DNA from: an uncultured Methanosarcinales archaeon
Lineage (GTDB): Archaea > Nanobdellota > Nanobdellia > Woesearchaeales > JAGWAF01
Assembly (NCBI GenBank): GCA_964529655.1
Contig: CAZGZA010000002.1
Span: forward strand, 10,705 to 52,936
Reading direction: 5' to 3'
Length of the DNA: 42,232 nucleotides
Positions 6,367-41,057 of this stretch are shown piece by piece; positions within the stretch are counted from its first letter, which is position 1, and each line of letters opens with the position of its first letter. The notes beneath the pieces are model-generated. The model was given only the letters and a program-made list of their open reading frames with translations. It was not told the origin of the DNA and did not search any database. Position numbers and translations under genes: made by a program.

Positions 6367-6590
6367 ACCGGTTTGAAAGGAACCACATCCGCAAAGAGAT
6401 AGAAAAACTAAAACAGGCTAATACAGCCCTGACATCCGGGCAGGTTGTCTGGCTTTTTCTTGGAGTTTTGGCATCGCCAACCATAATCCTTCCCTATCTT
6501 TGTTATGGCTATATCAAAAAGTATAGCCGGCAAAAAAGCAAAAACCTCGCAACAATGGCCACACTAAGAGAAGAAATCACAAAATCCTAA
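6354..6590 (+). CDS. Hypothetical small membrane protein
   Basis: 78-aa ORF overlapping the alaS stop, with one predicted TM helix (VVWLFLGVLASPTIILPYLCYGY). No recognisable family. Confidence 0.3.
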   Translation: MVKMNRFERNHIRKEIEKLKQANTALTSGQVVWLFLGVLASPTIILPYLCYGYIKKYSRQKSKNLATMATLREEITKS

Positions 6591-6674
6591 AAATCCGCCT
6601 GCCAAAGGATTTTTAGGATGCGGAAAGACGAGCTAGTATCCACAAGCAAACAACATAGTTTTATGCTCGTCTTT
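6589..6674. repeat. Two-hairpin element (AAAAATCC..GGATTTTTAGGATGC + AAAGACGAGC..GCTCGTCTTT), copy 1
   Basis: A second copy at 18054-18137 has the same order and conserved stems. Confidence 0.6.
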
Positions 6675-6682
6675 TTAGCACC

Positions 6683-8818: not shown

Positions 8819-8900
8819 AATAGGCCTGTCTCAGTTTTATTCACTGATTAAAATATAATAAAAGACATAAATAATTATACGAATAGTTATGTCTTTTAAA

Positions 8901-8945
8901 TATAGTAACTGACATTTTGTCTAAATGTTAAGGTCAGTTACTATA
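8901..8945. promoter_or_regulatory. Third copy of the TATAGTAAC-N-GTTACTATA palindrome
   Basis: TATAGTAACTGAC (8901-8913) pairs with GTCAGTTACTATA (8933-8945). The arm sequence and ~45-bp span match those at 1812-1857 and 28203-28248. Confidence 0.45.
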
Positions 8946-10172
8946 ATTGGTTAATTTAGCCTGTTTTGTCAGTTTGTAAACTAGCTTGCTTTCTTTTAAT
9001 ATTTTGCGTATATCATACCCAAACTTTTTATGAACGAGTATTCTGGCATAGTTAAGCATATAACTCCTGTCTGCGAATTCAATGGGTTTAGTTGCCAGCG
9101 CTTTTCTGATTGCCTCCCGGCATACCCAGACTCCAAGAGGCACTGCATATTCTCCTGTAATAAACCGCAGAACAAGGGATGATGCCTGCTTTTTTAGCTT
9201 TATTAATTTTTCTGCCAGTGGAAGCCTTGCGGCATAATACCCTCCCGAGGTGTTGTTTGCATAGCCCTTTCTGCCTTCATAAGGTTCGTAATCACTAGAA
9301 GATTGTATCTCGCTGGTTTGATTCCATATGGCATTGGGCAGGTATGTTTCAAACAGTTCATACGACCAGATGTCAGGAAATAGAAGTATAAGATAGTAAT
9401 TGCCCAGATACCCGCCAAAATACGAAGTGCATATGTCTATTTTTGTAAAGTTTCTTAAGGTGTTTAGCAGGTTTTTTGCAATTATATCATCTGTTGCGGT
9501 AATGGCCCATCTAGTTGGAACAAGCTTTCTGCTGGCGCCAACACCAACATTGCCAACGCTTAATATCTTTGTTAAAAAGTGTTCATCAAATCCTTTATTG
9601 TAGAGGTATACAAGAGCGTCGGAGGCCCTCCAGTCGATGTCATTAACCACCTTTTCAACCTTTGAGGAAACAAAAGGATTTGAGGTAATTCTTGCCCCCT
9701 CAATAAAGGCGTTAGGGCCCATTGGCGGGAGAATATCATCGTTTCTTACTCTGAAAGATGGCTTGTCCTTAAAGGTTATCTCGACCTCAACAGGTTTTGA
9801 GGCTATCCCAATCTCTTTAGAGATATCCACCAATCCACAGCCGGACTTGATATTGCTTTTGAACAGTGCGTTTATCAGCCCGCTTCTATAAGCGATAATC
9901 TCACTGGAACCGATATTATTAGCAGCCCAAAAGCGTGGCGCATCATACCTCCAGCTTTCTATGTTTACCAATGGCGCTAGTATCCCAACATTAACCAATG
10001 GGTAGCCAAACCTTCCAATAAATGGTGCAGGGGAGCTTGAGGCTAAACATGTTAGTGGTAATCCTTTGTTTATTTTGAATATAGCTTCAGATTTTGCGAG
10101 GATTGGGCAGAACTCTCTTCCGCAGCTTTGTTTTGGGTTTTTGCCTTTGCATTGGATACATGGGATTCTCAT
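8934..10172 (-). CDS. nreA: NreA-like DNA repair protein (archaeal Nre N- and C-terminal domains)
   Basis: The N-terminal Cys cluster is CIQCKGK..CGREFCPIL. LVPTRWAITATDD and EPYEGRKGYANNTSGGYYAARL match conserved Nre blocks as I recall them. Confidence 0.65.
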   Translation of the reverse strand: MRIPCIQCKGKNPKQSCGREFCPILAKSEAIFKINKGLPLTCLASSSPAPFIGRFGYPLVNVGILAPLVNIESWRYDAPRFWAANNIGSSEIIAYRSGLINALFKSNIKSGCGLVDISKEIGIASKPVEVEITFKDKPSFRVRNDDILPPMGPNAFIEGARITSNPFVSSKVEKVVNDIDWRASDALVYLYNKGFDEHFLTKILSVGNVGVGASRKLVPTRWAITATDDIIAKNLLNTLRNFTKIDICTSYFGGYLGNYYLILLFPDIWSYELFETYLPNAIWNQTSEIQSSSDYEPYEGRKGYANNTSGGYYAARLPLAEKLIKLKKQASSLVLRFITGEYAVPLGVWVCREAIRKALATKPIEFADRSYMLNYARILVHKKFGYDIRKILKESKLVYKLTKQAKLTNYSN

Positions 10173-10224: not shown

Positions 10225-11379
10225 ATGGCTGCTTTGAGGAAAATAGCTTCAATTATAGTGTTAACCACTGTTTTTGGATTTGCCAGGTCACAGTTAGACC
10301 CGATTTTATCACCCTATGCCAAGAGCCTTGGCTTTAGCACTTTTCAGATAAGCTTATTTTTTGCGGTTTTCTCTCTTGTGATGATATTAATGTCGCCGCT
10401 TATCGGAAGAATTTCAGATGGCATTGGCAGAAAGAGGGTGATTCTTGCCGGCCTGCTTGCCTCAGCCATAGCTTTAGTGCTTTATACTCTTAGCAGTTCA
10501 TGGATAGTCTTTATCGGTGCAAGAGTGCTGGACGCAATGGGTTTTATGTCTGTGGGGTTAATTGCAATATCCAAGCTTGAGGATGGCATTGATGATAGGC
10601 AAAGAGGTGCATTTACAGGATTTAGCGAAAGCATCAACAGCGTTGGAGCAATACTCGGGCCTTTATTAGGCGGCTTTATAGCTGATTATTATACTGTTAA
10701 GATGCCATTTTTCACTGCAGCATTTATAACATTGCTGCTGTTCTTTTTTGTCTTATTCTGGAAAGAGCCTCCTAAAAGGGCATTGCAGCTGTCAGACATT
10801 AACTTTATTCAAAGCTTAGCCAAATTTCTAAAAATCCGGGAGCTAAGGGCAATAGCTCTCCTTGGATTTTTTATGTACGCAACTATCCCGGTAACATACA
10901 TTTTTATTCCTCTTATGATTGTTGAGGAGTTTCATAAACCTTATTCTTATGTGGGGTATTTTTTAGTGGCATATGTTTTCTTTAACCTCTTCCAGTTTGC
11001 TTACGGTAAAATAAGCGATACCATGGGTCAAACCCCAATCTTAGTCCTTGGCGGGGTTATGAGCGGGATAATACTTATTCTTTACGCACAGACGCCATCC
11101 TTTGGCATTCTGCTGTTGCTAACGCTCGCCAGGTCATTTGCAGACGCCAACTGGAGTGTTACTACCTGGGCTTTCATATCGAAAATAGGTGAAAAAAAGC
11201 AGTTTGAGGGCCAGGTTACTGGTTCATATTACTCGCTTGTTAGAATTGGCTCCTTTTCAAGCTATGCGCTCAGCAGCCTGGTGGTGTTGTATTTTAATGT
11301 GCAGGTGCTATTTGTTTTATACGGGGTGTTGCTGATTGCCGCGGCATTGGTTGCAGAAAGAATGCTTGCAAAAGCGTAA
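10225..11379 (+). CDS. MFS transporter
   Basis: About 12 TM segments and MFS motif A, GRISDGIGRKRVILAG. Confidence 0.85.
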   Translation: MAALRKIASIIVLTTVFGFARSQLDPILSPYAKSLGFSTFQISLFFAVFSLVMILMSPLIGRISDGIGRKRVILAGLLASAIALVLYTLSSSWIVFIGARVLDAMGFMSVGLIAISKLEDGIDDRQRGAFTGFSESINSVGAILGPLLGGFIADYYTVKMPFFTAAFITLLLFFFVLFWKEPPKRALQLSDINFIQSLAKFLKIRELRAIALLGFFMYATIPVTYIFIPLMIVEEFHKPYSYVGYFLVAYVFFNLFQFAYGKISDTMGQTPILVLGGVMSGIILILYAQTPSFGILLLLTLARSFADANWSVTTWAFISKIGEKKQFEGQVTGSYYSLVRIGSFSSYALSSLVVLYFNVQVLFVLYGVLLIAAALVAERMLAKA

Positions 11380-11497
11380 TGGAAACCTTAGCTTTCCATT
11401 TGTATTTTTCGTAACACTTTAGTATTCTGAAGTATGCCAATAAAAATTCTGCTTTTATGAGTACGTACAGGAAAATACTTTCCTCAGTTCCGGTTGC

Positions 11498-11779
11498 CTG
11501 CCTCCCTACTGTAAAATCCGAGATTTTACAGTCCCTCAAATTTGTTCCAAATTTGAGTTGTCTTGGCTTTGCCAAGATTAAATTTTCTCCCCCTCGCTTG
11601 CGCAGGGGGAGAAAATACCTCAAAATCAGAGATTTTGCGGTACTTCAAATTTAGCCAGAACCCTTTCTTGATTTTGAGGTACTGCAAATTTAGCGAAAAG
11701 CTAAATTTGAAGTATAACCCAACTTTGTTCTGAACAAAGTTGAGCAGGGAGGCAGCAGATGAATAATAACAGCAGCAAA
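11498..11779 (-). repeat. 282-bp multi-hairpin element, copy 1 (perfect inverted copy of 18152-18433)
   Basis: Its reverse complement matches 18152-18433 at both ends on direct comparison. The two track ORFs crossing the copies share an identical 85-residue stretch. Confidence 0.9.
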
Positions 11780-11821
11780 GCATTTTTGCTTCAGAAAGCT
11801 GAACAACTACATTTTAACCTG

Positions 11822-12775
11822 CTACAGCTTCCTGATTCTTGCGACATAGAACCCCTCTGTATCATTATCCTGAGGCCAGATTCTAAGCGTTTTGCTTATT
11901 TCATCAGAATACTTTTTGTCCTCAAAAAATAATACAGGAGGAGAGGACTTCAAATGCGGAAGATTAACTTCTTCTATAACCGCGTTATCATGCCTCTTTA
12001 ACAAGAAGTCAACAACGCCCTCATTCTCCTCTGGCTCGAGTGAGCAGGTAGAATAAACCAGAACGCCATCCTGCTTTAAAACCTTAAAGCCGGTCTCTAT
12101 AAGATTTTTTTGGACAAAACTTAATTTTGTCACCATCTTTGGATTCCATGCCTCAATCGTCGACAATGACTTTCTGATTGTACCTGTTCCTGAACAGGGA
12201 GCATCAGCCAAAACATAATCAAATTGTGTTTTGATATTACTAAACCATTGGCCTTGCATTAGTGTGATAATAGCATTTCTTACACCGCACCTTTGCAGGT
12301 TTAAACCAAGCGGCGCAAGCCTGATTCCGATATGGTCATTTGCTATAATAACCCCCTTATTGTTGAGCATCTGCGCAATTTGCGTTGTTTTACTGCCAGG
12401 GGATGCGCACATGTCCAAAATAGCTGGTTCCTCAAACTGTTCATTGTACAATAATGCCAGTGGAGGTATCATAGAAACTGCCTCCTGAACATAAAAATAC
12501 CCTAAGCTGTGCTCCAGAGTGTTGCCGATTGCCTCCTCACGCTTTTCAATCCAAAACCCTTCGTTGCACCATGGAATCTGCTCAAAACCCCATGTCGCAG
12601 CTAGGCGTTTATGCAACCTATCAATCGATGTTTTAAGTGTATTAACTCTTATAGACTTTCTAAGAAAAGCAAGAGAATATTTCTTAAACTCCTCGAATTC
12701 CGTTAATTTGCTGTATCTTGCGATAAACTCTTTTTTGAATTTTAATGATTCTGTTCCAGGTATTGGAGTTAACAT
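11822..12775 (-). CDS. NOL1/NOP2/Sun family RNA (cytosine-C5)-methyltransferase
   Basis: DMCASPGSKT (SAM site), DAPCSGTGTIRK and YSTCSLEPEENE (the two catalytic Cys motifs). Confidence 0.9.
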   Translation of the reverse strand: MLTPIPGTESLKFKKEFIARYSKLTEFEEFKKYSLAFLRKSIRVNTLKTSIDRLHKRLAATWGFEQIPWCNEGFWIEKREEAIGNTLEHSLGYFYVQEAVSMIPPLALLYNEQFEEPAILDMCASPGSKTTQIAQMLNNKGVIIANDHIGIRLAPLGLNLQRCGVRNAIITLMQGQWFSNIKTQFDYVLADAPCSGTGTIRKSLSTIEAWNPKMVTKLSFVQKNLIETGFKVLKQDGVLVYSTCSLEPEENEGVVDFLLKRHDNAVIEEVNLPHLKSSPPVLFFEDKKYSDEISKTLRIWPQDNDTEGFYVARIRKL

Positions 12776-12839
12776 CAGAGCTTTAACAGGATTTTAATAT
12801 TTATAAAATGTTGCTGACAAATAGCACTATTCTATATAT

Positions 12840-13217
12840 CTACTTATCCTGATTTTGTTTTTGGTATTTTATTCCGGTTGCCCTTATTATGTACTCACGA
12901 AACAACCCAAAGAAAGCTCTTTCACCAAAGTATTCCCTGAATTCTACAATCTCATCATATTGTTTGGCGACTGCGTTAAAATTTTTATATGCCACACCCA
13001 TTCCCATCCAAGCAATGGAGATCGCATCAACCCTTATTGGCTCGGCTACAACACCTTTTTGTGTTACATACTGCTCCAGAGATAGCCTTTCCTGCGCGGC
13101 TTTTAGTGCAAGAAAATCTCCTAAACTGCTATTCCAGTGCGGCGCTTTTAGGCATAATGAGTCCCACCACGCACCGATATGCGGCACAAACAGGTTAGCC
13201 CACGTCTTCTCTTTCAT
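12840..13217 (-). CDS. Hypothetical protein
   Basis: 125-aa ORF filling the gap between flanking genes. No recognisable motif. Confidence 0.35.
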   Translation of the reverse strand: MKEKTWANLFVPHIGAWWDSLCLKAPHWNSSLGDFLALKAAQERLSLEQYVTQKGVVAEPIRVDAISIAWMGMGVAYKNFNAVAKQYDEIVEFREYFGERAFFGLFREYIIRATGIKYQKQNQDK

Positions 13218-13271
13218 AAACTCTGGGTATTAACATTAATTATATAAAGCTTTGTTCACTTCTCATGGAAA

Positions 13272-13925
13272 ATGAGAGGGAGCAGTGCTAAAAGTTTGTA
13301 CAAGTTTATTCTAAAGGGTTTTATCGGAAGGAAAAATACAAAAGAATTCTATAACAGGGTTGCTGGCATCTATGAGTCGGCTATGAGCAGCCAACAAAAG
13401 CATGCTACAGAAATTATTGACCGACTTCCGAGAGGAGATATCTGCCTTGATTTAGGCTGCGGTACCGGCCTTTCAACCCTGGAATTAATGACAAAAGCTG
13501 ATTTTACTGTTGGTATTGATTTTTCCAGAAGCATGCTCAATGAGGCAAAAAAGAAGGGATTGGAAAGGCTTATCAACGGAAATATTTTGGAGCTTCCTTT
13601 CAGAAGCAATACAATAGACTGCACCACTGCCATAGGTGTAGTTCGGCATTTGCCTTATGGTTCAGAACAAACCTTCTTTAATGAGATTTATAGAGTTTTA
13701 AAAAAGAATGGTGTATTTATGACACCGGCAGTAAAATACACCTTCTGCAACCGATTGGTTTTAGGGTTGTACGATAAATTCATGAAACTACTAGGCTATG
13801 ATGAACAACTGGCAAGATTTAGTGTAGAAAATTTTAAGATTTTGGGAGAAAATGCTGGTTTTGCCGTTCAAGCTTATCCTTTCAGGGGATTAAGAGACGG
13901 ATTTCTAGTTTATTTCATTAAATAA
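13272..13925 (+). CDS. Class I SAM-dependent methyltransferase
   Basis: Motif I is ICLDLGCGTG. The acidic post-I residue and the LKKNGVF motif are present. Confidence 0.8.
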   Translation: MRGSSAKSLYKFILKGFIGRKNTKEFYNRVAGIYESAMSSQQKHATEIIDRLPRGDICLDLGCGTGLSTLELMTKADFTVGIDFSRSMLNEAKKKGLERLINGNILELPFRSNTIDCTTAIGVVRHLPYGSEQTFFNEIYRVLKKNGVFMTPAVKYTFCNRLVLGLYDKFMKLLGYDEQLARFSVENFKILGENAGFAVQAYPFRGLRDGFLVYFIK

Positions 13926-14007
13926 TCAACAATCTTTGAGCAGATATACAATCAATTCAGCTTTAATCTCCAAAAGATTTAATAAATCAGGATTTTTAGG
14001 ATAGGCT

Positions 14008-14664
14008 ATGGTCTTGTTATGCGGAATTGATGAAGCTGGCCGGGGACCAATCATTGGCCCGATGGTAATGTGCGGCGTAGTTATAGAAGAAAAAGATGAG
14101 CTTAAACTTGCGGCTATAGGAGCAAGAGATTCAAAACTTTTAAGCCCCAAGGCGCGCGAAATAACCTACAAAAAGATTATAGGCATTGTCAAGGATTACA
14201 AGGTTGAAATAATTTCTCCTGAGGAGATAGATGCTGCTTTAAAATCTGCAACCTTAAACCTTAATTGGCTTGAGGCGCATAAAACAGCTGCAATAGTAAA
14301 CTACCTTAATCCTGATAAAGTACTCATGGACTGCCCAAGCCCAAATTGCAGGGCTTACACAAACTATGTTAAACCGCTTATTACAAACAAAAACATCAAG
14401 CTAATAGCAGAGCCGAAAGCTGACGTTAACTACCCGGTTGTTAGCGCTGCCTCAATAATTGCAAAGGTAATCAGAGACCAGCAGATTGAGGAAATTAAAA
14501 AAAGGATTGGCATCGATTTCGGTTCAGGCTATATTGCCGATGAGCGCACGCTTAATTTTGTAAAGGAAAACTATGATGTTTATCCTGAAATTTTTAGAAA
14601 AGAATGGGCGCCGTATAAAAAAGCCATGCAGTCAAAAAAGCAAAAGAGCATTAAGGAGTTTTAA
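14008..14664 (+). CDS. rnhB: Ribonuclease HII
   Basis: GIDEAGRGPIIGPMV plus the DSK and SAASIIAK motifs. Confidence 0.9.
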   Translation: MVLLCGIDEAGRGPIIGPMVMCGVVIEEKDELKLAAIGARDSKLLSPKAREITYKKIIGIVKDYKVEIISPEEIDAALKSATLNLNWLEAHKTAAIVNYLNPDKVLMDCPSPNCRAYTNYVKPLITNKNIKLIAEPKADVNYPVVSAASIIAKVIRDQQIEEIKKRIGIDFGSGYIADERTLNFVKENYDVYPEIFRKEWAPYKKAMQSKKQKSIKEF

Positions 14665-14680
14665 CTGATTTGGACATTTC

Positions 14681-14695
14681 AAAAGGCTTATAAAC
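14681..14695 (+). promoter_or_regulatory. BRE/TATA-like promoter AAAAGGCTTATAAAC for tRNA-iMet
   Basis: It is centred ~28 nt upstream of the tRNA 5' end and is the same word as upstream of 16S. Confidence 0.5.
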
Positions 14696-14718
14696 AACAA
14701 GCAGTTATTTGCGTGCAT

Positions 14719-14793
14719 AGCGAGGTAGGGCAGACAGGAGTGCCCGGGGGGCTCATAACCCCCAGGTCGGTGGTTCAAATCCACCCCTCGCTA
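14719..14793 (+). tRNA. Initiator tRNA-Met (CAT)
   Basis: Hand-folded cloverleaf: acceptor AGCGAGG/CCTCGCT with A1:U72, anticodon arm GGGGG-CTCATAA-CCCCC (a G:C run typical of initiators), T arm GGTGG-TTCAAAT-CCACC. Confidence 0.9.
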
Positions 14794-14933
14794 TTTTTAT
14801 GTTTGTAGTTTGTGGGACTTCATGAAGTGAATGTCCCATTCTTTTTGATCAAACTTTTCGTTAGTTCATGAGCGCGCTCATGAACTAAGCCACGCATGGC
14901 CGTAAAAGTTTGGTGAATATCCACCTCTCGTTA
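14794..14933 (+). repeat. tRNA-iMet trailer cassette ending in a degenerate copy of the tRNA 3' end
   Basis: CCACCTCTCGTTA (14921-14933) matches the tRNA 3' end CCACCCCTCGCTA (14781-14793) at 11/13. It is preceded by AAAAGTTTGGTGAATAT. It contains the module 14814-14860, shared with the tRNA-Pro trailer, and a 28-nt perfect palindrome at 14861-14888. Confidence 0.75.
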
Positions 14934-14981
14934 GTTTCTTTTGTTCCTCAAACAAGAATTAATTAAAATTATAACGCGGAT

Positions 14982-15320
14982 TCATCCGTAACTTTTAGGT
15001 TTTTGGTTGTCTGTATGCAGCTTATCCTTTATTTCGTTTTCAAGGTCATTAAAGGCCTTATGAAGTGTTCTCGCCAAATCCCAATCAACTGCCTTTGTCG
15101 ACTCAAAAATACGTGTTGGCGCAACCAACTTTAGGTGAACGGAAAATTTTTCCCTGCCCCCGCCTTTACTATGCGTTTTAATGTGTACTGTTATTGAGGT
15201 AAAGTTTTTTATGGTGCGTTTTAGCTTTTGGTAGTATTCTGTGGCAAGACTATTAACTGTTTGTTGCTCTTCAGGTTTTAATTCACTCACTCCAATATAT
15301 TGAATGACTTCAGCTACCAT
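14982..15320 (-). CDS. Possible HPF/RaiA-like (S30AE family) ribosome-associated protein
   Basis: About 110 aa from MVAEVIQYIG. The layout ..EEQQTVNSLATEYYQKLKR.. ITVHIKTH.. KFSVHLKLVAP.. STKAVDWDLARTLHKAFNDLENEIKDKLH resembles HPF/YfiA. This is pattern recognition only. Confidence 0.4.
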   Translation of the reverse strand: MVAEVIQYIGVSELKPEEQQTVNSLATEYYQKLKRTIKNFTSITVHIKTHSKGGGREKFSVHLKLVAPTRIFESTKAVDWDLARTLHKAFNDLENEIKDKLHTDNQKPKSYG

Positions 15321-15467
15321 CTTGAAGGTATATTGCAGTTTTTGAGGTTTATATGTTTTACTGATAAGTAATGCCAGACATAAATAACACATAAAATTGT
15401 TATGTTCTGGCAACCTTTAGTAAGCAATTTATTTCATAACTTATTTTTGTCGCTTACTAAAACTTAG

Positions 15468-16886
<1,419 letters not shown>

Positions 16887-16942
16887 TTAATATCACCAAA
16901 CCCTATTTTATGATGTGTTTTAAATATATTTTGATTGGTATG

Positions 16943-17992
16943 TTAGACAACATCTTTCACTTCAGCTTTAAGATTTTCAATGAATCTGCTGAAATCCTTT
17001 TCCTTGACGCTTCCGCCGCAGGCAAACTCATGCCCTCCGCCAAAGCCATCAATGCCTCTTAACGCTATTTCCAGAACTTTTCTTAGGTCTATTGTATTGT
17101 TATCCCCTCTTCTTAAGCTTAGCTTAAACTCATCCCCTTTTTTTCTGCAGATAACCACTATCTTATCCGGATGCAGATAAGAAATTTCATTGGAAAGCCC
17201 GCTTGTGAAGCTGTACCCCTTTTCAGAATAGACAAACAAAACAACTTTCCCATTAATATGGTTCAGCGCTTCATCCCTTAACTTTTCGTAAAGCATGTTA
17301 ATTTTTTCGAAGCGCTTAAAGAGAAATTTACCTTGAGGTGTTTTCTGTTCAAGAATATCTTCTGGAGCGGTGATTCGCGTCAAAATTTTAAGAGAAGCCA
17401 TTACCTCTTTTGTTTTGCCTTTAAGATTAGTTGCAAGGATTGCCACCAATTTTCCAAGCCTGCTTTTATACAGAATATCCCCTGGTTTTTTTAAATCCTC
17501 TCCGATTAGATTGGGGTAATCCTGCCTAAACTCATTTATAAAATGTGGGATATACCAATCGCCAATGCAGCCACATGCCGCTATCCACATATCCTGCTTG
17601 ACTATATCATAACAGACAGCTGTTGGGGGAATTGGCGGGCCATACTGGCGTGTATTAAAATAGGTTACATTCTCCCTTTTTAAGATGTCATGATGGTCTA
17701 GCCATACAACCGGCTTTTTAACCTCATCAATAAAATCCTGTTCAACAACCGCTAAATCCAAAACAAAAATCTTATCCGCATCATAATCCAATACCTTTTT
17801 TGCGTAAATGCTCTTTGTAACGCACGGCGTTGATTTTACGATTATTCCCCTGCCGCGTTTTATAAACCTGTAAAGCAGCAGAAACGAGCACAGGCCATCC
17901 GGGTCGTCGTGGAAAAAGAATATCGGCCTTTTGCTTGTTAAAAGCTCATCCTTTATCTGGCTAATCTGTTCTGCAGGAAGCATAAAAAGCAT
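16943..17992 (-). CDS. DHH/DHHA1 family phosphoesterase (NrnA/RecJ-like)
   Basis: FFHDDPDGLCS, LDHHD and the C-terminal GGGHEFACGG. Confidence 0.8.
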   Translation of the reverse strand: MLFMLPAEQISQIKDELLTSKRPIFFFHDDPDGLCSFLLLYRFIKRGRGIIVKSTPCVTKSIYAKKVLDYDADKIFVLDLAVVEQDFIDEVKKPVVWLDHHDILKRENVTYFNTRQYGPPIPPTAVCYDIVKQDMWIAACGCIGDWYIPHFINEFRQDYPNLIGEDLKKPGDILYKSRLGKLVAILATNLKGKTKEVMASLKILTRITAPEDILEQKTPQGKFLFKRFEKINMLYEKLRDEALNHINGKVVLFVYSEKGYSFTSGLSNEISYLHPDKIVVICRKKGDEFKLSLRRGDNNTIDLRKVLEIALRGIDGFGGGHEFACGGSVKEKDFSRFIENLKAEVKDVV

Positions 17993-18053
17993 AAGAATAC
18001 TGTTATTTAAAAGATTATTGAAAAATAGTACTTATTTAGCTTTCTGAAGTCAT

Positions 18054-18137
18054 AAAAATCCACTGTAGGTGGATTTTTAGGATGCCAAAGACGAGCCAGC
18101 ATCTACACCGTTAAGATAGGGTTTTAGGCTCGTCTTT
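18054..18137. repeat. Two-hairpin element, copy 2 (see 6589-6674)
   Basis: AAAAATCCACTGTAGGTGGATTTTTAGGATGCC followed by AAAGACGAGC..GCTCGTCTTT. It lies 14 nt from the 282-bp repeat. Confidence 0.6.
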
Positions 18138-18151
18138 GTGCATAAAGATAA

Positions 18152-18433
18152 TTTGCTGCTGTTATTATTCATCTGCTGCCTCCCTGCTCAACTTTGTTCA
18201 GAACAAAGTTGGGTTATACTTCAAATTTAGCTTTTCGCTAAATTTGCAGTACCTCAAAATCAAGAAAGGGTTCTGGCTAAATTTGAAGTACCGCAAAATC
18301 TCTGATTTTGAGGTATTTTCTCCCCCTGCGCAAGCGAGGGGGAGAAAATTTAATCTTGGCAAAGCCAAGACAACTCAAATTTGGAACAAATTTGAGGGAC
18401 TGTAAAATCTCGGATTTTACAGTAGGGAGGCAG
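18152..18433 (+). repeat. 282-bp multi-hairpin element, copy 2
   Basis: Perfect inverted copy of 11498-11779. The terminal pairing is GCTGCCTCCCT / AGGGAGGCAGC, with about seven internal stem-loops. Confidence 0.9.
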
Positions 18434-18561
18434 CGGCGGGAGCAGAGAAAATCATTTTTCTGAGGTTACAACACAGAACATTCATCACACTTCAGAATAA
18501 TAAAAGGTTCTGCTAAAACGAAAGGTAAATAAAAGAAATTGTCCACTATAAACAAGGAAAA

Positions 18562-19326
18562 ATGGACAAATTTAAGGTTGCAGCTGCGCAAATAAACCTC
18601 AATCAAACATTTGCGTTGGTGCTGAAGGATATGCTGAACTATATTGACCGCGCCAAGGCAAAGGGGGTTGATATCATCTGCTTTCCAGAATCCTCACTTT
18701 TAGGAGGTGACACAAAGAACAGATGGGCGCTCGGAAAGCTAAGGCAGAAATGTAAAGAGAAAAAGATATGGGTCATTGTTGCCGGACGCGTTCGGGAAAA
18801 GAAGCATGTTTATAACACTGCTTTTTTAATAAATAATCAGGGAAGAATTCACGGAAAACACAAGAAGGTCCACCTTTCTGAATGCCTGACACCCTCACTA
18901 AGAGCAGGTTCGGCATTTAAAGTCTATGACACGCCTTTCTGCAAAATAGGGCTGGCAATCTGCTGGGATGTTGCATTTCCTAATGCAGTTCAGAGCATGG
19001 TTAAGAAAGGAGCAAAGTTAATATTCTGTCCAATGTATTGGTGCTTTGAGGAATGGGTGCACAGGAAAGAGCCTAAAAAGTTCGAGAAAAAGCTTCTCAG
19101 GGCGCTGGTCCTTACAAGGGCGTTTGAAAATCTTGCTTATACTATTGTCTGCAATGCTTATGACCAGAAAAGGCCTGACCTGACTTCATACTCTGCAATA
19201 GCAGAGCCGCACAAGATAATAAGCGAAATTTTCGAAAAAGAGGGTATGATTACGGCTGAGGTTGACCTTAATTATCTTAAGAAAGTAAGAAAGAAGTATG
19301 CAGAAGATTATAACAAGGTTTTTTAA
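18562..19326 (+). CDS. Carbon-nitrogen hydrolase (nitrilase superfamily)
   Basis: The E-K-C triad context is CFPES, HGKHKKVHL and GLAICWD. Confidence 0.85.
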   Translation: MDKFKVAAAQINLNQTFALVLKDMLNYIDRAKAKGVDIICFPESSLLGGDTKNRWALGKLRQKCKEKKIWVIVAGRVREKKHVYNTAFLINNQGRIHGKHKKVHLSECLTPSLRAGSAFKVYDTPFCKIGLAICWDVAFPNAVQSMVKKGAKLIFCPMYWCFEEWVHRKEPKKFEKKLLRALVLTRAFENLAYTIVCNAYDQKRPDLTSYSAIAEPHKIISEIFEKEGMITAEVDLNYLKKVRKKYAEDYNKVF

Positions 19327-20278: not shown

Positions 20279-20349
20279 ACCCACCAGATTTTTAAAAAAA
20301 TCTGGTAAAAACATTGGACATAAAATCTTTGAGATTTTAGTCCAAAAAA

Positions 20350-20420
20350 TGCGCTGGCCGGGATTCGAACCCGGATAATCAGCTTGGAAGGCTGAAGTCA
20401 TGCCATTAGACCACCAGCGC
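20350..20420 (-). tRNA. tRNA-Gly (TCC)
   Basis: Hand fold: GCGCTGG..CCAGCGC acceptor, anticodon arm TCAGC-CTTCCAA-GCTGA, T arm CCGGG-TTCGAAT-CCCGG. Confidence 0.9.
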
Positions 20421-20606
20421 ATTTGTTATGATAGCAGAAGACATAAAAAAATATACAATTAGCAGGTCTTCTGCTATTAGCCAAAGGCATACTAATTGTA
20501 TAAACAATTATGTCTTTGGCTATAAAATGGCGGGTTGTATTATAAAGTTTTTGCTCTTTTTAAAAAGCAAATCTTTAAATTTCTCTTGCGCTTTGTCTCT
20601 TAATAC

Positions 20607-20680: not shown

Positions 20681-20929
20681 TTTGGAATTAAAGCTGTAGC
20701 GCAGGTTTAATTCCAGCTTTTTACCAGATTTTTACCGAAAAATCTGGTGGTAATCTCCCCAGCCCCAGTTATTTGTTTGTAGTGGGTAATTCTTGGGACT
20801 TCACGAAGTGAATGTCCCATTCTTTTTGATCAAACTTTTCGCCAAAACACTCAAAAATCCATTAAGATTTTTGGTGTCCTAAAAATTCCCGGAATTTTTA
20901 TGAGTTTGGTGAATATCTCCCCAGCCTCA
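20681..20929 (+). repeat. Two tandem tRNA-Pro trailer cassettes, each ending in a copy of the tRNA 3' end
   Basis: ATCTCCCCAGCCCCA (20753-20767, 1 mismatch) and ATCTCCCCAGCCTCA (20915-20929, exact) both match the tRNA at 20666-20680. Confidence 0.85.
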
Positions 20930-22450: not shown

Positions 22451-23526
22451 AGATTGCGATTGTTTCAGACAGGTATTATCCAAGTATGGACGGAATTGTG
22501 AGGTTTCTGGAGGCTGTTATTCCCGGGCTGGAAAAGAGGATGGAGCTGCAGCTCTTAGTCCCGGGCTATAGCAAGAGCCAAAAAAGTATCTCAGCTAAGA
22601 CAACAGTTGTTCCAGCGTTTAAAGCTGAATTTCTTGGCCTGCCATATATGGTTATTCCTAAGAAGATTAAATACTTAAAGGAGGCAATTAAAAACAGCGA
22701 TAAGGTCTGGGTTCAGACAATGGGACTTTTTGGAATGGCAGCATTTTATTATGCTAGAAAATACAAAAAGCCTGTTTATGTTTTTGTCCATAGTATAGAA
22801 TGGGAGCTGTTGTTGCATTCTCTAAAGGCGCCGAGGATTGTTAAGCTAATTCTCGCCAGGATTATAAAATGTGTAATTTTGCATTTTTACAAAAAGGCAG
22901 AGCTGCTGATGGTGCCATCAAAAGATATGCAGCATTTGTTTCCGACAATGAAAACAGGGGTTATACCTCTAGGGGTTGACCGCAATATATTCCGGCCTTT
23001 AGCCGGAAAAAGCCATGGCTTTACAGTAGGGTATTGCGGCAGGCTTTCAGAAGACAAGAATCTTATGGTTCTTAAGCAGGCCTTTAAGATGCTGCATGAA
23101 AAAGTGCCGAACAGCAGCCTTTTGCTGGTTGGTGATGGCCCGCTTAAGGAAAAGCTTAAAGGCATTGGAATTACAATTACAGGTTTTGTTTATGATGTTG
23201 TTGGATATCTAAATAAGATGGATGTTTTTGTTTTGCCCTCACTTACAGAAACAACATCACTGGCAACGCTTGAGGCCATGGTATGCGGGCTTCCTGTGAT
23301 TGTTACTAAATCCTCACCTGTCCTGCGCAGGATAATTCAGGATGGCAAAAATGGCTTTTTCTTCCATAAGCTTAATGCAAATGAGCTTGAGGAGCGACTG
23401 ATGCTGTTGTACAGCAAACCAAAGCTAAGAAAATCAATGGGTAGACTAAACCAAAAGATTATAGCAAAAAGGTTTAGCTGGAGCACTGCGATTGAGAGGA
23501 TTGCGGGAATTCTGAACAAGATTTAA
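22447..23526 (+). CDS. Glycosyltransferase family 4 (GT-B fold)
   Basis: The C-terminal EX7E-type region is PSLTETTSLATLEAMVCGLPVI. It overlaps the PIG-L stop by 4 nt. Confidence 0.85.
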   Translation: MKIAIVSDRYYPSMDGIVRFLEAVIPGLEKRMELQLLVPGYSKSQKSISAKTTVVPAFKAEFLGLPYMVIPKKIKYLKEAIKNSDKVWVQTMGLFGMAAFYYARKYKKPVYVFVHSIEWELLLHSLKAPRIVKLILARIIKCVILHFYKKAELLMVPSKDMQHLFPTMKTGVIPLGVDRNIFRPLAGKSHGFTVGYCGRLSEDKNLMVLKQAFKMLHEKVPNSSLLLVGDGPLKEKLKGIGITITGFVYDVVGYLNKMDVFVLPSLTETTSLATLEAMVCGLPVIVTKSSPVLRRIIQDGKNGFFFHKLNANELEERLMLLYSKPKLRKSMGRLNQKIIAKRFSWSTAIERIAGILNKI

Positions 23527-24545
23527 ATACTAGCATTAGAGGGAGTTGACAAGAATAACGCAGACTTGCTGATTAATGCTATAATAGTAAGCAAGTCTGC
23601 GGAATGTACAAGAATGACAAACAATCCATTAATAAATATTGATAAAATCAAGAGCAGGATTTATACTATTAGAAGCCTACAAGTAATGCTCGATGCAGAT
23701 CTTGCAGAGCTTTATAATGTAGAGACAAAAACATTAAATCAAGCAGTTAAAAGAAACAGTGAAAGATTTCCAAAAGAGTTTATGTTTCAAATAGCTCAAG
23801 AAGAGTTTGATAATTTGAAGTCACAATTTGTGGCCTCAGGTGCAAAAGATTTAAGGTCACAAAATGTTACCTTAAAAAACAGAAGAGGGCATCACCGGAA
23901 GTATCTTCCATATGTTTTTACAGAGCAGGGAGTTGCAATGCTTTCAGGAGTCTTAAAAAGCAACACTGCGGTAAAGATAAGCATACAAATAATGAGCGCA
24001 TTTGTCGCAATGAGGCAGTTTATCTATTCAAATGCCCAAATATTTTATAGGTTAAATGTTGTAGAAAAAAAGCAAATAGAATATGACAATAAATTTGATG
24101 AAATATTCGATGCCATACAAAGCAAAGATATAGTCCCTGAGAAAGGAATATTTTTTGATGGGCAGATATTTGATTCATACCAATTTGTTTCTGGCTTAAT
24201 TAGAAGCGCTAATAAGTCCATTATCCTTATTGATAATTATATAGATGATTCTGTATTGACTCTATTCAGCAAGAGAAATAAAAATGTGCAAGCCACTATA
24301 TTCACTAAAGAGATTTCCAAGCAATTAGCTCTTGATTTAACCAAATACAATTCACAATACCCATCAATCGAAGTAAAAGAGTTTAAACAGTCGCATGATA
24401 GGTTTCTTATAATAGATAATAAGGATGTTTACCATTTTGGGGCATCATTAAAAGATTTAGGCAAAAAGTGGTTTGCATTCTCAAAATTTGACAGGGAAGC
24501 AGTTAAGCTGCTGGATAAGCTGGGGTTGAAATGAAAGAGGGGTAT
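23527..24545 (+). mobile_element. Candidate inserted cassette carrying an ORF6N-domain gene, bounded by duplicated glycosyltransferase 3' ends
   Basis: It is flanked by the direct repeats 23411-23526 and 24546-24658. No integrase or transposase is present. Confidence 0.45.
23614..24534 (+). CDS. ORF6N (KilA-N-like) DNA-binding domain protein with a C-terminal PLD-like degenerate HKD region
   Basis: IRSLQVMLDADLAELYNVETKTLNQAVKRNSERFPKEFMFQ is the ORF6N signature. The C-terminal HDRFLIIDNKDVYHFGASLKDLG resembles an HxK-x4-D...GS motif with K replaced. I placed the start at MTNNPL. Confidence 0.7.
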   Translation: MTNNPLINIDKIKSRIYTIRSLQVMLDADLAELYNVETKTLNQAVKRNSERFPKEFMFQIAQEEFDNLKSQFVASGAKDLRSQNVTLKNRRGHHRKYLPYVFTEQGVAMLSGVLKSNTAVKISIQIMSAFVAMRQFIYSNAQIFYRLNVVEKKQIEYDNKFDEIFDAIQSKDIVPEKGIFFDGQIFDSYQFVSGLIRSANKSIILIDNYIDDSVLTLFSKRNKNVQATIFTKEISKQLALDLTKYNSQYPSIEVKEFKQSHDRFLIIDNKDVYHFGASLKDLGKKWFAFSKFDREAVKLLDKLGLK

Positions 24546-24658
24546 ACAGCAAACCCAAGCTAAGAAAATCAATGGCTAGCTTAAACCAAAGGATTATAGC
24601 AAAAAGGTTCGGCTGGAGCACTGCGATTGATAGTATTGAGAGAATTCTGAAAGATTAG
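24546..24658 (+). pseudogene. Detached duplicate of the glycosyltransferase C-terminal coding end
   Basis: It translates in frame to YSKPKLRKSMASLNQRIIAKRFGWSTAIDSIERILKD*, compared with YSKPKLRKSMGRLNQKIIAKRFSWSTAIERIAGILNKI* at 23411-23526. Confidence 0.7.
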
Positions 24659-28152: not shown

Positions 28153-28199
28153 TTCCCCCGTATGTTAATGGGCAGATTGCTTTTATAAAATTATTGTTG

Positions 28200-28281
28200 T
28201 TTTATAGTAACAGACGTTAATTTTTATGTATAATCTACTGTTACTATATTCGGCAGGCATAATCTATTTGTATAATTACTT
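28200..28281 (-). promoter_or_regulatory. 82-nt conserved element upstream of smc (paralog of 1809-1890)
   Basis: The inverted repeat is TATAGTAACAGAC..CTGTTACTATA at 28203-28248. A TATA-like TTTTATAAAA lies between it and the smc ATG. Confidence 0.55.
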
Positions 28282-31295: not shown

Positions 31296-31439
31296 TGGGC
31301 CCATCCAGATACCTACCAGATTTTTTAGAAAATGCACAAAAATCTAAAATATTTTTGGCATCCTGGAAATCCGCAGATTTCCATGAATCTGGTAAAAATA
31401 TGCGACATAAAATCCTTCTGGGATTTTAGTCGCAAAAAC
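31296..31439 (-). repeat. tRNA-Val trailer cassette ending in a copy of the tRNA 3' end
   Basis: TGGGCCCATCCAGAT (31296-31310) matches TGGGCCCAACCGGAT (31440-31454) at 13/15. The hairpin GACATAAAATCC..GGATTTTAGTC is at 31404-31431. Confidence 0.75.
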
Positions 31440-31546: not shown

Positions 31547-31704
31547 TCTGGGCCCACGGGGATTTTCACAAGATTTTTACCAAAGCACAAAAATCCCAGA
31601 GGATTTTTGGCTCCCAAAAAACTTTTGGTTTTTTGTGGAAATCTTGTAAAAAGTGGGCGACATAAAATCCCTTCAGGATTTTAGTCCCTCTAAACTTTGA
31701 AATC
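31547..31704 (-). repeat. tRNA-Ile trailer cassette ending in a copy of the tRNA 3' end
   Basis: TCTGGGCCCACGGGGATTT at 31547-31565 is identical (19/19) to 31703-31721. The hairpin is at 31659-31686. Confidence 0.85.
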
Positions 31705-31824
31705 TGGGCCCACGGGGATTTGAACCCCAGACCTTCGGCTTTCCTAGCGCCGAAAGCGGCCGTATAAGACCGACGCTCTAACTGCCCGAAAGTTTTAGCT
31801 TCCTCCAGGCTGAGCTATGGGCCC
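31705..31824 (-). tRNA. tRNA-Ile (TAT) with two introns (D-loop and canonical 37/38)
   Basis: Removing 31782-31804 (23 nt) and 31741-31762 (22 nt) gives a 75-nt cloverleaf, GGGCCCATAGCTCAGCCTGGTTAGAGCGTCGGTCTTATAAGCCGAAGGTCTGGGGTTCAAATCCCCGTGGGCCCA. The anticodon loop is CTTATAA. Confidence 0.7.
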
Positions 31825-31868: not shown

Positions 31869-31977
31869 TGCAACAGCCGGGATTTTCACCAAACTTTTTT
31901 TGACAAAAGGTTTGATCAAAAGCAGCGACATAAAATCCCTACAGGATTTTAGTCGCAAACACGACCAACACATTCTA
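31869..31977 (-). repeat. tRNA-Gly(GCC) trailer cassette ending in a copy of the tRNA 3' end
   Basis: TGCAACAGCCGGGATTT (31869-31885) matches TGCGACAGCCGGGATTT (31978-31994) at 16/17. The hairpin is at 31927-31954. Confidence 0.8.
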
Positions 31978-32156: not shown

Positions 32157-32203
32157 GTTAGTTAGCATCAGAGATTGTCTCTATTTAAAAAACTTGCTTA
32201 CTG

Positions 32204-32343
32204 AACTTTTGCATTTTTAGTTTATTGTATCCTGCAAAAGTTAAGTTCGTAAACTGTCAAGAATCCGGGATTCTTGAGCATGCTCATAAAAGCTTTGCTT
32301 TTATAACATTTTGCCTATTTTAGCTAAAACGCAAAAGTTTACG
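32204..32343. repeat. Pair of AACTTTTGC..GCAAAAGTT hairpins, the second split by a 54-nt insertion
   Basis: AACTTTTGCA (32204-32213) pairs with TGCAAAAGTT (32233-32242). CGTAAAC (32248-32254) + [32255-32308] + TTTTGC..GCAAAAGTTTACG (to 32343) is the same 13-nt arm as at 2697-2739. Confidence 0.55.
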
Positions 32344-40467: not shown

Positions 40468-40619
40468 ATTGAAAAGTTCAGTTATCGCGCCTGCTCTGTC
40501 CAAGCTAATGCTTGGATAATTTCTTTCTCCCCGCACAGGTGAGGGGAGAAAGAAATTAGTCTGCAAGACCAAAGCAGGCTGGACAGGTATAACCAAGAGC
40601 AATACAACCGCTTTTCAAT
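40468..40619. other. Hairpin-rich intergenic segment closed by ATTGAAAAG/CTTTTCAAT (candidate structured RNA or repeat)
   Basis: It contains CCAAGC-TAAT-GCTTGG and a perfect 15-bp stem, AATTTCTTTCTCCCC (40518-40532) / GGGGAGAAAGAAATT (40543-40557). The latter is similar to the TCTCCCCC hairpin inside the 282-bp repeat. Confidence 0.35.
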
Positions 40620-40682: not shown

Positions 40683-40772
40683 TGAACTTTTGCGTTTTGT
40701 ATATAAAACTAGGCAAAAGTTCATGTAGTTAACTTTTGCAGGATATAATAAATTTAAAGTACAAAAGTTAAC
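40683..40772. repeat. Tandem pair of AACTTTTG..CAAAAGTT hairpins
   Basis: TGAACTTTTGC (40683-40693) pairs with GCAAAAGTTCA (40713-40723). GTTAACTTTTG (40728-40738) pairs with CAAAAGTTAAC (40762-40772). Both are perfect 11-bp stems. Confidence 0.6.
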
Positions 40773-40826
40773 TTCCGATAAATTTATAAACCTCTTCAAA
40801 AAGTAATAATAACTGTGGCATGACCA

Positions 40827-41057
40827 ATGGATGATATTAATGAGAATGAAGAGACTGTATATAATGAAGAGTCTAGAGAAAAATATATAGAGTCTGACAG
40901 TATCTCAGTAGAGGAAGAGGGATTTATGAAAGGCTACGACGAAGCAGAAACGGATGAAGAGGAAAAAGAAACAGAGGAAAAAGAAACAGGAGAGAAGGGC
41001 GAAAATAAAAAAGAAGAAGATAAAGATGAGGATAACACAAATTTAGAAGAGGAATAA
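40827..41057 (+). CDS. Hypothetical highly acidic protein
   Basis: 76 aa and very rich in Glu/Asp. Low complexity, so coding status is uncertain. Confidence 0.35.
   Translation: MDDINENEETVYNEESREKYIESDSISVEEEGFMKGYDEAETDEEEKETEEKETGEKGENKKEEDKDEDNTNLEEE

Follow-up and report, generated by a model that had tools for sequence, protein, structure and literature searches.

An orphan, palindrome-rich 282-nt repeat in inverted copies at the ends of a 6.4-kb gene block in a Woesearchaeota-like genome

What is a stretch of 282 nt in intergenic DNA that is built almost wholly of perfect hairpins and is closed upon itself by its own ends? The question arises in an archaeal window (the whole stretch of DNA that was analysed, 42,232 nt), for which a preliminary description made from the letters alone had proposed either a novel structured RNA or an unusual MITE. 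The window contains six tRNA genes and an archaeal SSU rRNA gene (5' part) and has a GC content of 40.6%. The homologues of its DHH phosphoesterase carry the names Woesearchaeota archaeon or Nanoarchaeota archaeon, which places the source among the DPANN archaea, and the nearest of them have 64-65% amino-acid identity.

Two inverted copies and the hairpins of their core

The unit had been called a repeat, and this proved to be correct, since an exact copy of it is present 6.4 kb away in inverted orientation. The preliminary description had overlooked this twin and its arrangement around an inverted block, as well as the diverged homologous flanks of both copies and the other palindromic repeat families of the window. 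The twin (copy A) had escaped a direct-repeat scan because it is inverted with respect to the unit first described (copy B), and the two copies are arranged head to head across 6.4 kb of DNA. Copy A is placed between the convergent genes for MFS (10225-11379, +) and RsmB/F (11822-12775, -), while copy B occupies a spacer of 569 nt between the divergent genes for DHH (16943-17992, -) and a carbon-nitrogen hydrolase (18562-19326, +). The positions of both copies, of their flanks and of the hairpins are presented in Table 1.

Table 1 Positions of the repeat copies, their flanks, hairpins and associated features in the window
Feature	Coordinates	Strand	Remarks
Copy A, identical core, inverted	11498..11779	-	between MFS and RsmB/F
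Tail flank of copy A	11413..11497	-	diverged homologue of 18434-18509
Block between the copies	11780..18151		RsmB, 125-aa ORF, methyltransferase, RNase HII, tRNA-Met, 143-aa ORF, AdSS (adenylosuccinate synthetase), DHH
Head-side flank of copy B	18022..18056	+	homologous to 11783-11815, which abuts the copy A head
Copy B, 282-nt identical core	18152..18433	+	282/282 against the reverse complement of 11498-11779; closed multibranch fold
Core head sequence			TTTGCTGCTG
Left closing arm, candidate terminal inverted repeat	18175..18185	+	GCTGCCTCCCT; 23 nt inside the identity boundary
H1	18189-18211		palindrome CAACTTTGTTC-A-GAACAAAGTTG; 11-bp stem, 1-nt loop; paralogue of H6
H2	18217-18251		15 bp with 1 mismatch; perfect 10 bp at 18222-18246
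H3	arms 18250-18262 and 18303-18315		13 bp
H2 + H3 region	18217..18315		with 39-nt tandem duplication
H4	18315-18349		13-bp stem ATTTTCTCCCCCT/AGGGGGAGAAAAT; GCAA in + strand loop
H5	18354-18370		TCTTGGC-AAA-GCCAAGA, 7 bp
H6	18374-18396		10 bp
H7	18399-18423		11 bp
Right closing arm	18424..18434	+	AGGGAGGCAGC; last base different in copy A
Tail flank of copy B	18434..18509	+	~70% identical to copy A tail flank
Family 2, two-hairpin repeat of about 90 nt	18050..18141	+	beside the copy B head boundary, absent at copy A
Family 2, second copy	6585-6676		between convergent AlaRS and 272-aa genes; nhmmer E = 1.3e-6

Comparison of the sequences around the two copies showed that their homology continues beyond the core. 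At the tail it extends over ~76-85 nt (local alignment score 31, with a shuffle maximum of 29), and at the head side a segment of 33 nt at copy A reached a score of 36 (shuffle maximum 27); in neither case was the score equalled by any of 500 shuffles. In copy B the head-side homologous segment is separated from the core by ~95 nt of additional DNA, which is a repeat of another family (family 2 in Table 1). The bases just outside the head are ..AAATGC in one copy and ..AGATAA in the other. Overall, the identity of the flanks is ~70-80%, against 100% in the core. Since the flanks are homologous beyond the core, the repeat is longer (about 400-490 nt) and older than the 282 nt suggest. Moreover, the jump from 100% to ~70% is incompatible with uniform divergence, so that either gene conversion between the inverted copies has homogenised the core or a younger core was inserted twice into an older repeat. 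We consider that the core was probably homogenised by recombination between the copies.

All the stem-loops listed in the preliminary description were found in the sequence, and the closed chain of hairpins was confirmed. The closing arms are present as well, each displaced by one base from the position given there, and pair perfectly over 11 bp, or over 14 bp when extended with one G-T. The pattern of the left arm was matched 5 times with at most one mismatch, compared with 0.81 expected. H1 is a 23-bp palindrome around one central base, and the loops of H5, H6 and H7 are 3 nt in length. In contrast, a hairpin described as related and placed at 40518-40557 does exist at 40517-40558, but its likeness to H4 is loose. 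The similarity between AGGGAGGCAGC and ACGGGAGGCAGC, a region of bacterial 16S, was judged to be coincidental.

The internal hairpins are themselves repetitive. A 25-nt segment, GCTAAATTTG(C/A)AGTACC(T/G)CAAAATC, occurs in tandem at 18237-18261 (M1) and 18276-18300 (M2), as had been reported, and a third, diverged copy was found at 18385-18409. In each of these modules, a right arm from a hairpin of the CAAATTT type is joined to a left arm from one of the AAAATC type. H6 and H7 together (18374..18423) make up a second double-hairpin module, whose paralogue is H2 with a local hairpin at 18291-18313. The single arms at 18217-18231 and 18303-18315 can find their partner in M1 as well as in M2. 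The mutually exclusive folds proposed earlier therefore rest on a real tandem module, but a switch is needless, because the 39-nt tandem duplication gave the single left and right arms two partners each and suffices to explain the alternative pairings; riboswitch-like alternative folding was rejected on this ground.

The gene block between the copies and the origin of the repeat

The genes between the copies are oriented differently from those of relatives. In the closest pair of relatives (assemblies GCA_053531995.1 and GCA_053532575.1, supplemented by Logan contigs), the order is Nre(-), MFS(+), a 38-nt spacer, DHH(+), AdSS(+), a homologue of the 143-aa ORF(+) and RNase HII(-), with orthology assigned by tblastn (56-75% identity), and Nre(-)...DHH(+) is likewise seen in two relatives that are more distant. 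The window agrees with this order in Nre(-) and MFS(+), but DHH, AdSS, the 143-aa ORF and RNase HII are reversed, and each of the two breakpoints is occupied by one copy of the repeat. The reversed order with breakpoints at the copies indicates that the block, as assembled, was inverted in this lineage and that the ancestral MFS-DHH junction was without the element. The element is absent from the 38-nt MFS-DHH spacer of relatives; given that even the nearest of these are distant (64-65% amino-acid identity in DHH), this absence is weak evidence for a recent insertion. The orientation of the 6.4-kb block could also be the assembler's choice rather than a fixed inversion, because the four repeat-to-unique junctions are the same either way and the 282-nt core exceeds a typical short read. 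GC skew across the block tracks the coding strand and is uninformative on the inversion. For the closest relative, three independent assemblies are interrupted at one and the same position within the MFS gene (192 nt upstream of DHH), and two further ones continue across it, a pattern that points to variation between strains or to a repeat at this site in the population concerned.

Traces of transposition were looked for at every candidate boundary. No target-site duplication was found flanking either copy or in the cross-comparison expected after an inversion, and the flanks share at most a 'GC'. The perfect 11-bp arms resemble terminal inverted repeats, but the identical region begins 23 nt before the left arm, and homology runs past the right arm. 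In agreement with the preliminary description, which had reported no transposase, a Pfam search over the 42 kb detected no transposase, integrase or recombinase. The size of the core (282 nt) and of the whole unit (about 400-490 nt), together with the lack of any protein homologue, is that of a MITE.

Only two copies are present in the 42-kb window, and when the window and every fetched locus were searched with the unit by blastn and nhmmer, no third copy of the core was returned. When the gapped inverted-repeat pattern was searched in exact form, one chance match (Arthrobacter) was obtained in the GTDB representative genomes and two unrelated matches in the JGI metagenomes. The exact 25-nt module pattern had no match in the JGI metagenomes, four exact patterns from the element had none in IMG/VR, and a distant blastn search of plasmids and phages did not recover the element.

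Of the two proposals made at the outset, the unusual MITE is the better one, although the missing target-site duplication, the left arm lying 23 nt inside, the copy number of two and the lack of a cognate transposase in the window do not fit it. We favour, with slightly better than even confidence, an orphan, lineage-specific, MITE-like palindromic dispersed repeat whose two inverted copies recombine. The element is most likely confined to this Woesearchaeota/Nanoarchaeota-like lineage, and it may have been mobile in the past by means of an unseen transposase acting in trans or of some other copying process. On this view a longer non-coding dispersed repeat (about 400-490 nt), rich in palindromes, would have the 282-nt unit as its identical core. 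Its hairpins would have arisen by repeated direct and inverted duplication of a double-hairpin module of ~25-39 nt, a CAAATTT..AAATTTG hairpin followed by an AAAATC..GATTTT hairpin, and the 39-nt tandem duplication would belong to the same history. Because the cores are long and identical, the copies could serve as substrates for homologous recombination; gene conversion would keep the core at 100% while the flanks drift to ~70%, and crossing-over between the inverted copies would flip the 6.4-kb housekeeping block. We infer that recombination is the cause of both the core identity and the inversion.

The same observations could also be produced without any mobility, if a single copying event, such as template switching at palindromes in the course of the rearrangement, had duplicated an intergenic region of ~400 nt in inverted orientation and the pair had evolved in concert since then. 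Such a segmental duplication would account for the two known copies, for the lack of target-site duplications and of a transposase in the window, for the position of the copies exactly at the ends of the rearranged block, and for the lower-identity homology beyond the core, which is the edge-erosion pattern of concerted evolution. We nevertheless regard it as rather unlikely. The 11-14-bp closing inverted repeat and the modular build are MITE-like, other dispersed palindromic repeats are present in the window, one of them inserted at the very boundary of the unit, and the ~30% divergence of the flanks implies an old duplication, whereas an origin coupled to the inversion predicts a single age.

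These other palindromic repeats are numerous. The window contains 22 perfect hairpins with stems of at least 9 bp, 21 of which lie within its ~6.6 kb of intergenic DNA. The arrangement AAAATC-N(1-12)-GATTTT occurs 15 times (0.37 expected), nearly always between genes (e.g. at 690, 6590, 20854, 31543, 31590 and 36852), and was not found at all in ~57 kb of DNA fetched from relatives. Its members are heterogeneous, several being part of larger repeats, and the AAAATC-loop-GATTTT hairpin is a lineage-specific 'vocabulary'. In family 2 the stems are conserved (TAAAAATCC/GGATTTTTA, then AAAGACGAGC-N29-GCTCGTCTTT) and the loops have diverged; a scan with the family-2 pattern gave one match, an unrelated phage hairpin. 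The hairpin counts and the repeat families together indicate that the intergenic DNA of this lineage has been colonised by several palindromic repeat families. Such colonisation agrees with PMC11602168, which reports a woesearchaeal genome among the archaeal genomes of highest MITE density.

The element was then compared with known systems. Structured MITEs of prokaryotes include the Correia elements of Neisseria, the enterobacterial ERIC/IRU, the pneumococcal BOX and RUP, and SM1-SM4 of Sulfolobus. Like these, the present element is non-coding, intergenic, highly folded and short (50-800 bp, as in the MITE definition of PMC11602168), and its ends can pair by an inverted repeat; BOX-style modular internal repeats, identical copies at unrelated loci and the capacity for rearrangement are further similarities. 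Unlike them, the 282-nt element has no target-site duplication, its left arm is not at the identity boundary, and it has two copies, no known partner transposase and no sequence relative in the collections searched; seven perfect hairpins in a closed ring are also more elaborate than most.

PATEs, which are MITE-like, palindrome-associated derivatives of IS200/IS605 first named in Haloquadratum (PMC3119063), are likewise archaeal and non-coding, with asymmetric ends and no target-site duplication. They have subterminal hairpins near both ends, as does our element with H1 37 nt from the head and H7 10 nt from the tail. However, the tetra- or pentanucleotide that is conserved 5' of the left end in PATEs has no counterpart here (the two copies read ATGC and ATAA), the tail lacks a sharp boundary, as homology continues into its flank, and neither TnpA nor TnpB is encoded nearby. 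Inversions produced by homologous recombination between inverted IS or repeat copies have shuffled the chromosomes of Pyrococcus and Sulfolobus. The situation in the window is alike in that identical inverted repeats stand exactly at the ends of a block oriented differently from relatives, and unlike in that the repeat is a 282-nt non-coding unit, not an IS, with the orientation known as assembled only.

In bacteria, REP/BIME mosaics (REPINs) are mobilised by RAYT Y1 transposases, and to our knowledge REP/RAYT systems have been described in bacteria, not in DPANN archaea. The over-represented, mostly intergenic AAAATC-loop-GATTTT hairpins appear to combine into larger mosaic clusters and have conserved stems with variable loops, somewhat in the manner of REP/BIME sequences. 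It is conceivable, though we consider it doubtful, that they form an archaeal REP/BIME- or PATE-like system in which short hairpins are copied in single-stranded form by an unseen Y1-type enzyme into mosaics, the 282-nt ring of seven hairpins being the largest of them, or else that transcription of the ring yields a stable RNA with many hairpins. The window has no RAYT-like gene, a conserved 5' tetranucleotide head is not evident, and the hairpins are heterogeneous. If the hairpin-copying system were real, it would provide an archaeal counterpart of the bacterial REPINs.

Structured, non-coding intergenic repeats that mediate rearrangements are already known, so the dispersed repeat favoured here would not surprise a specialist, and the present evidence gives no opening for a new class of RNA or mobile element. 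The genomes of DPANN archaea are tiny and streamlined, which makes dense palindromic intergenic repeats conspicuous, and on the favoured reading the locus would offer a concrete case of small non-coding repeats reshuffling gene order in them. Identical inverted repeats of 282 nt can also mislead short-read assemblies.

RNA, regulatory and coding readings of the core

Given the extent of pairing, the fold of the core was compared with that of shuffled sequences. The minimum free energy of the RNA is -140.8 kcal/mol, compared with -75.5 +/- 4.9 kcal/mol for dinucleotide shuffles (z = -13.4), and none of 100 shuffles folded as well. The reverse strand gave z = -11.0 and folding with DNA parameters z = -11.6. 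When folded from arm to arm, the two strands reach -126.7 and -123.1 kcal/mol with ~100 pairs each, including 2 and 3 G-U, respectively. About 77% of the bases lie in bulge-free stems that are nearly purely Watson-Crick (~98% of pairs), and the + strand is favoured by two hints only, the single G-U of the closing helix and the GCAA loop on H4. Since both strands fold alike and the stems are nearly all Watson-Crick, the pattern is the signature of palindromes at the DNA level and not of a strand-specific RNA.

These data bear on the other half of the preliminary description, according to which the unit is a novel structured RNA. As a non-coding RNA gene it would measure ~260-280 nt, with a closing helix and seven hairpins, and be present in two copies. 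Its extreme predicted stability (the z of -13.4), the G-U of the closing helix on the + strand, the GNRA-type H4 loop, which is confined to that strand, and the paired, stem-keeping changes between paralogous hairpins (H1/H6 and H2/H6) would be expected of such a gene. However, the reverse strand folds just as well, and long stems without bulges and with loops of 1-3 nt are typical of DNA palindromes and atypical of functional RNA. A search of Rfam at the gathering threshold over the whole window gave no match for the element, and one at E <= 10 over 17900-18650 gave only noise; among these matches, IS605-orfB-II reached 21 bits against a gathering score of 88. Moreover, the head flanks differ between the copies and contain no common promoter, the orientation to neighbouring genes is not fixed, and the element is absent from the syntenic loci of relatives and from the collections searched. 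The RNA proposal thus received no positive support, and we consider it improbable. A group II intron, RNase P RNA or SRP RNA was rejected, since Rfam gave no signal and the conserved motifs are absent. A replication origin was likewise rejected (two copies, no orc1/cdc6 gene nearby, no AT-rich unwinding region), as was a CRISPR remnant, for which the module spacing is irregular and the 'spacer' would be just 14 nt.

A role in cis, in which the hairpins act on neighbouring genes as a bidirectional terminator, an insulator or a protein-binding array, appears very unlikely to us. It would be in line with the almost exclusively intergenic location of the perfect hairpins of the window (21/22), with the placement of AAAATC..GATTTT hairpins after tRNA genes and between convergent genes, and with copy A itself, which lies between convergent genes. 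Copy B, however, has divergent genes on its two sides, and the two contexts thus do not agree; no run of T longer than 4 can be read in the core, which makes it a poor archaeal terminator; the AAATTT cores are unevenly spaced (17, 39, 98 and 11 nt); and relatives manage with a 38-nt MFS-DHH spacer.

That the element encodes a small protein is hardly credible: open frames of 85 and 89 aa do span the copies, each with a start codon just beyond the head, but these starts lie in non-homologous flanks, the translation mirrors the nucleotide repeats, and neither the 89-aa ORF nor the concatenated six-frame translation has a homologue in 5.8 billion protein clusters, which bears out the earlier view that the frames are by-products of the palindromes.

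Further repeats and genes in the window

Several other sequences of the window were recorded in passing. Four tRNA genes are followed by a T-run and then by a conserved bulged hairpin, GCGACTAAAATCC-loop-GGATTTTATGTCGC (20303-20352, 31390-31439, 31645-31694 and 31913-31962), whose outer stem shows paired changes (GGAC/GTCC vs GCGAC/GTCGC). Downstream of tRNA-Gly and tRNA-Pro there is a perfect second hairpin, ACCAGATTTTT..AAAAATCTGGT, and the tRNA-hairpin group is also represented at 20283-20306 and 20723-20748. These tRNA-associated hairpins may serve as trailers, terminators or processing modules. Another repeat, of 56 nt and with 93% identity between its copies, lies downstream of tRNA-Met (14805-14860) and of tRNA-Pro (20786-20841). 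Between the divergent tRNA-Gly and tRNA-Pro, an imperfect palindrome of 93 nt (20431-20523) with 46-nt arms that are 74% complementary may be a symmetric divergent promoter region. On the minus strand, a 120-nt Rfam tRNA match at 31705-31824 that was not reported by ARAGORN probably marks an archaeal tRNA gene of the tRNA cluster, one interrupted by an intron.

A 98-nt repeat (1793-1890 and 28184-28281, 85% identical) contains the palindrome TATAGTAAC..GTTACTATA, which is also present at a third intergenic site, 8898-8948; TATAGTAAC occurs 6 times where 0.73 are expected, and the 98-nt repeat is probably a shared operator or promoter module. Inverted pairs of AACTTTTGC/GCAAAAGTT were counted 9 times (0.47 expected), at 2697-2739, 32200-32246 and 40685-40773 (also 3295 and 32331). 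Those at 40685-40773 lie on either side of TATA-like sequences, with a small acidic ORF (40827-41057) downstream, and the pairs look like candidate binding sites of a regulator. Finally, a gene with an ORF6N domain (KilA-N/antirepressor-like; 23566-24534) is located between direct repeats of 107 nt that are 90% identical (23410-23516 and 24545-24651), the first of which overlaps the 3' end of a glycosyltransferase gene; this gene looks like an inserted mobile cassette with a duplicated target.
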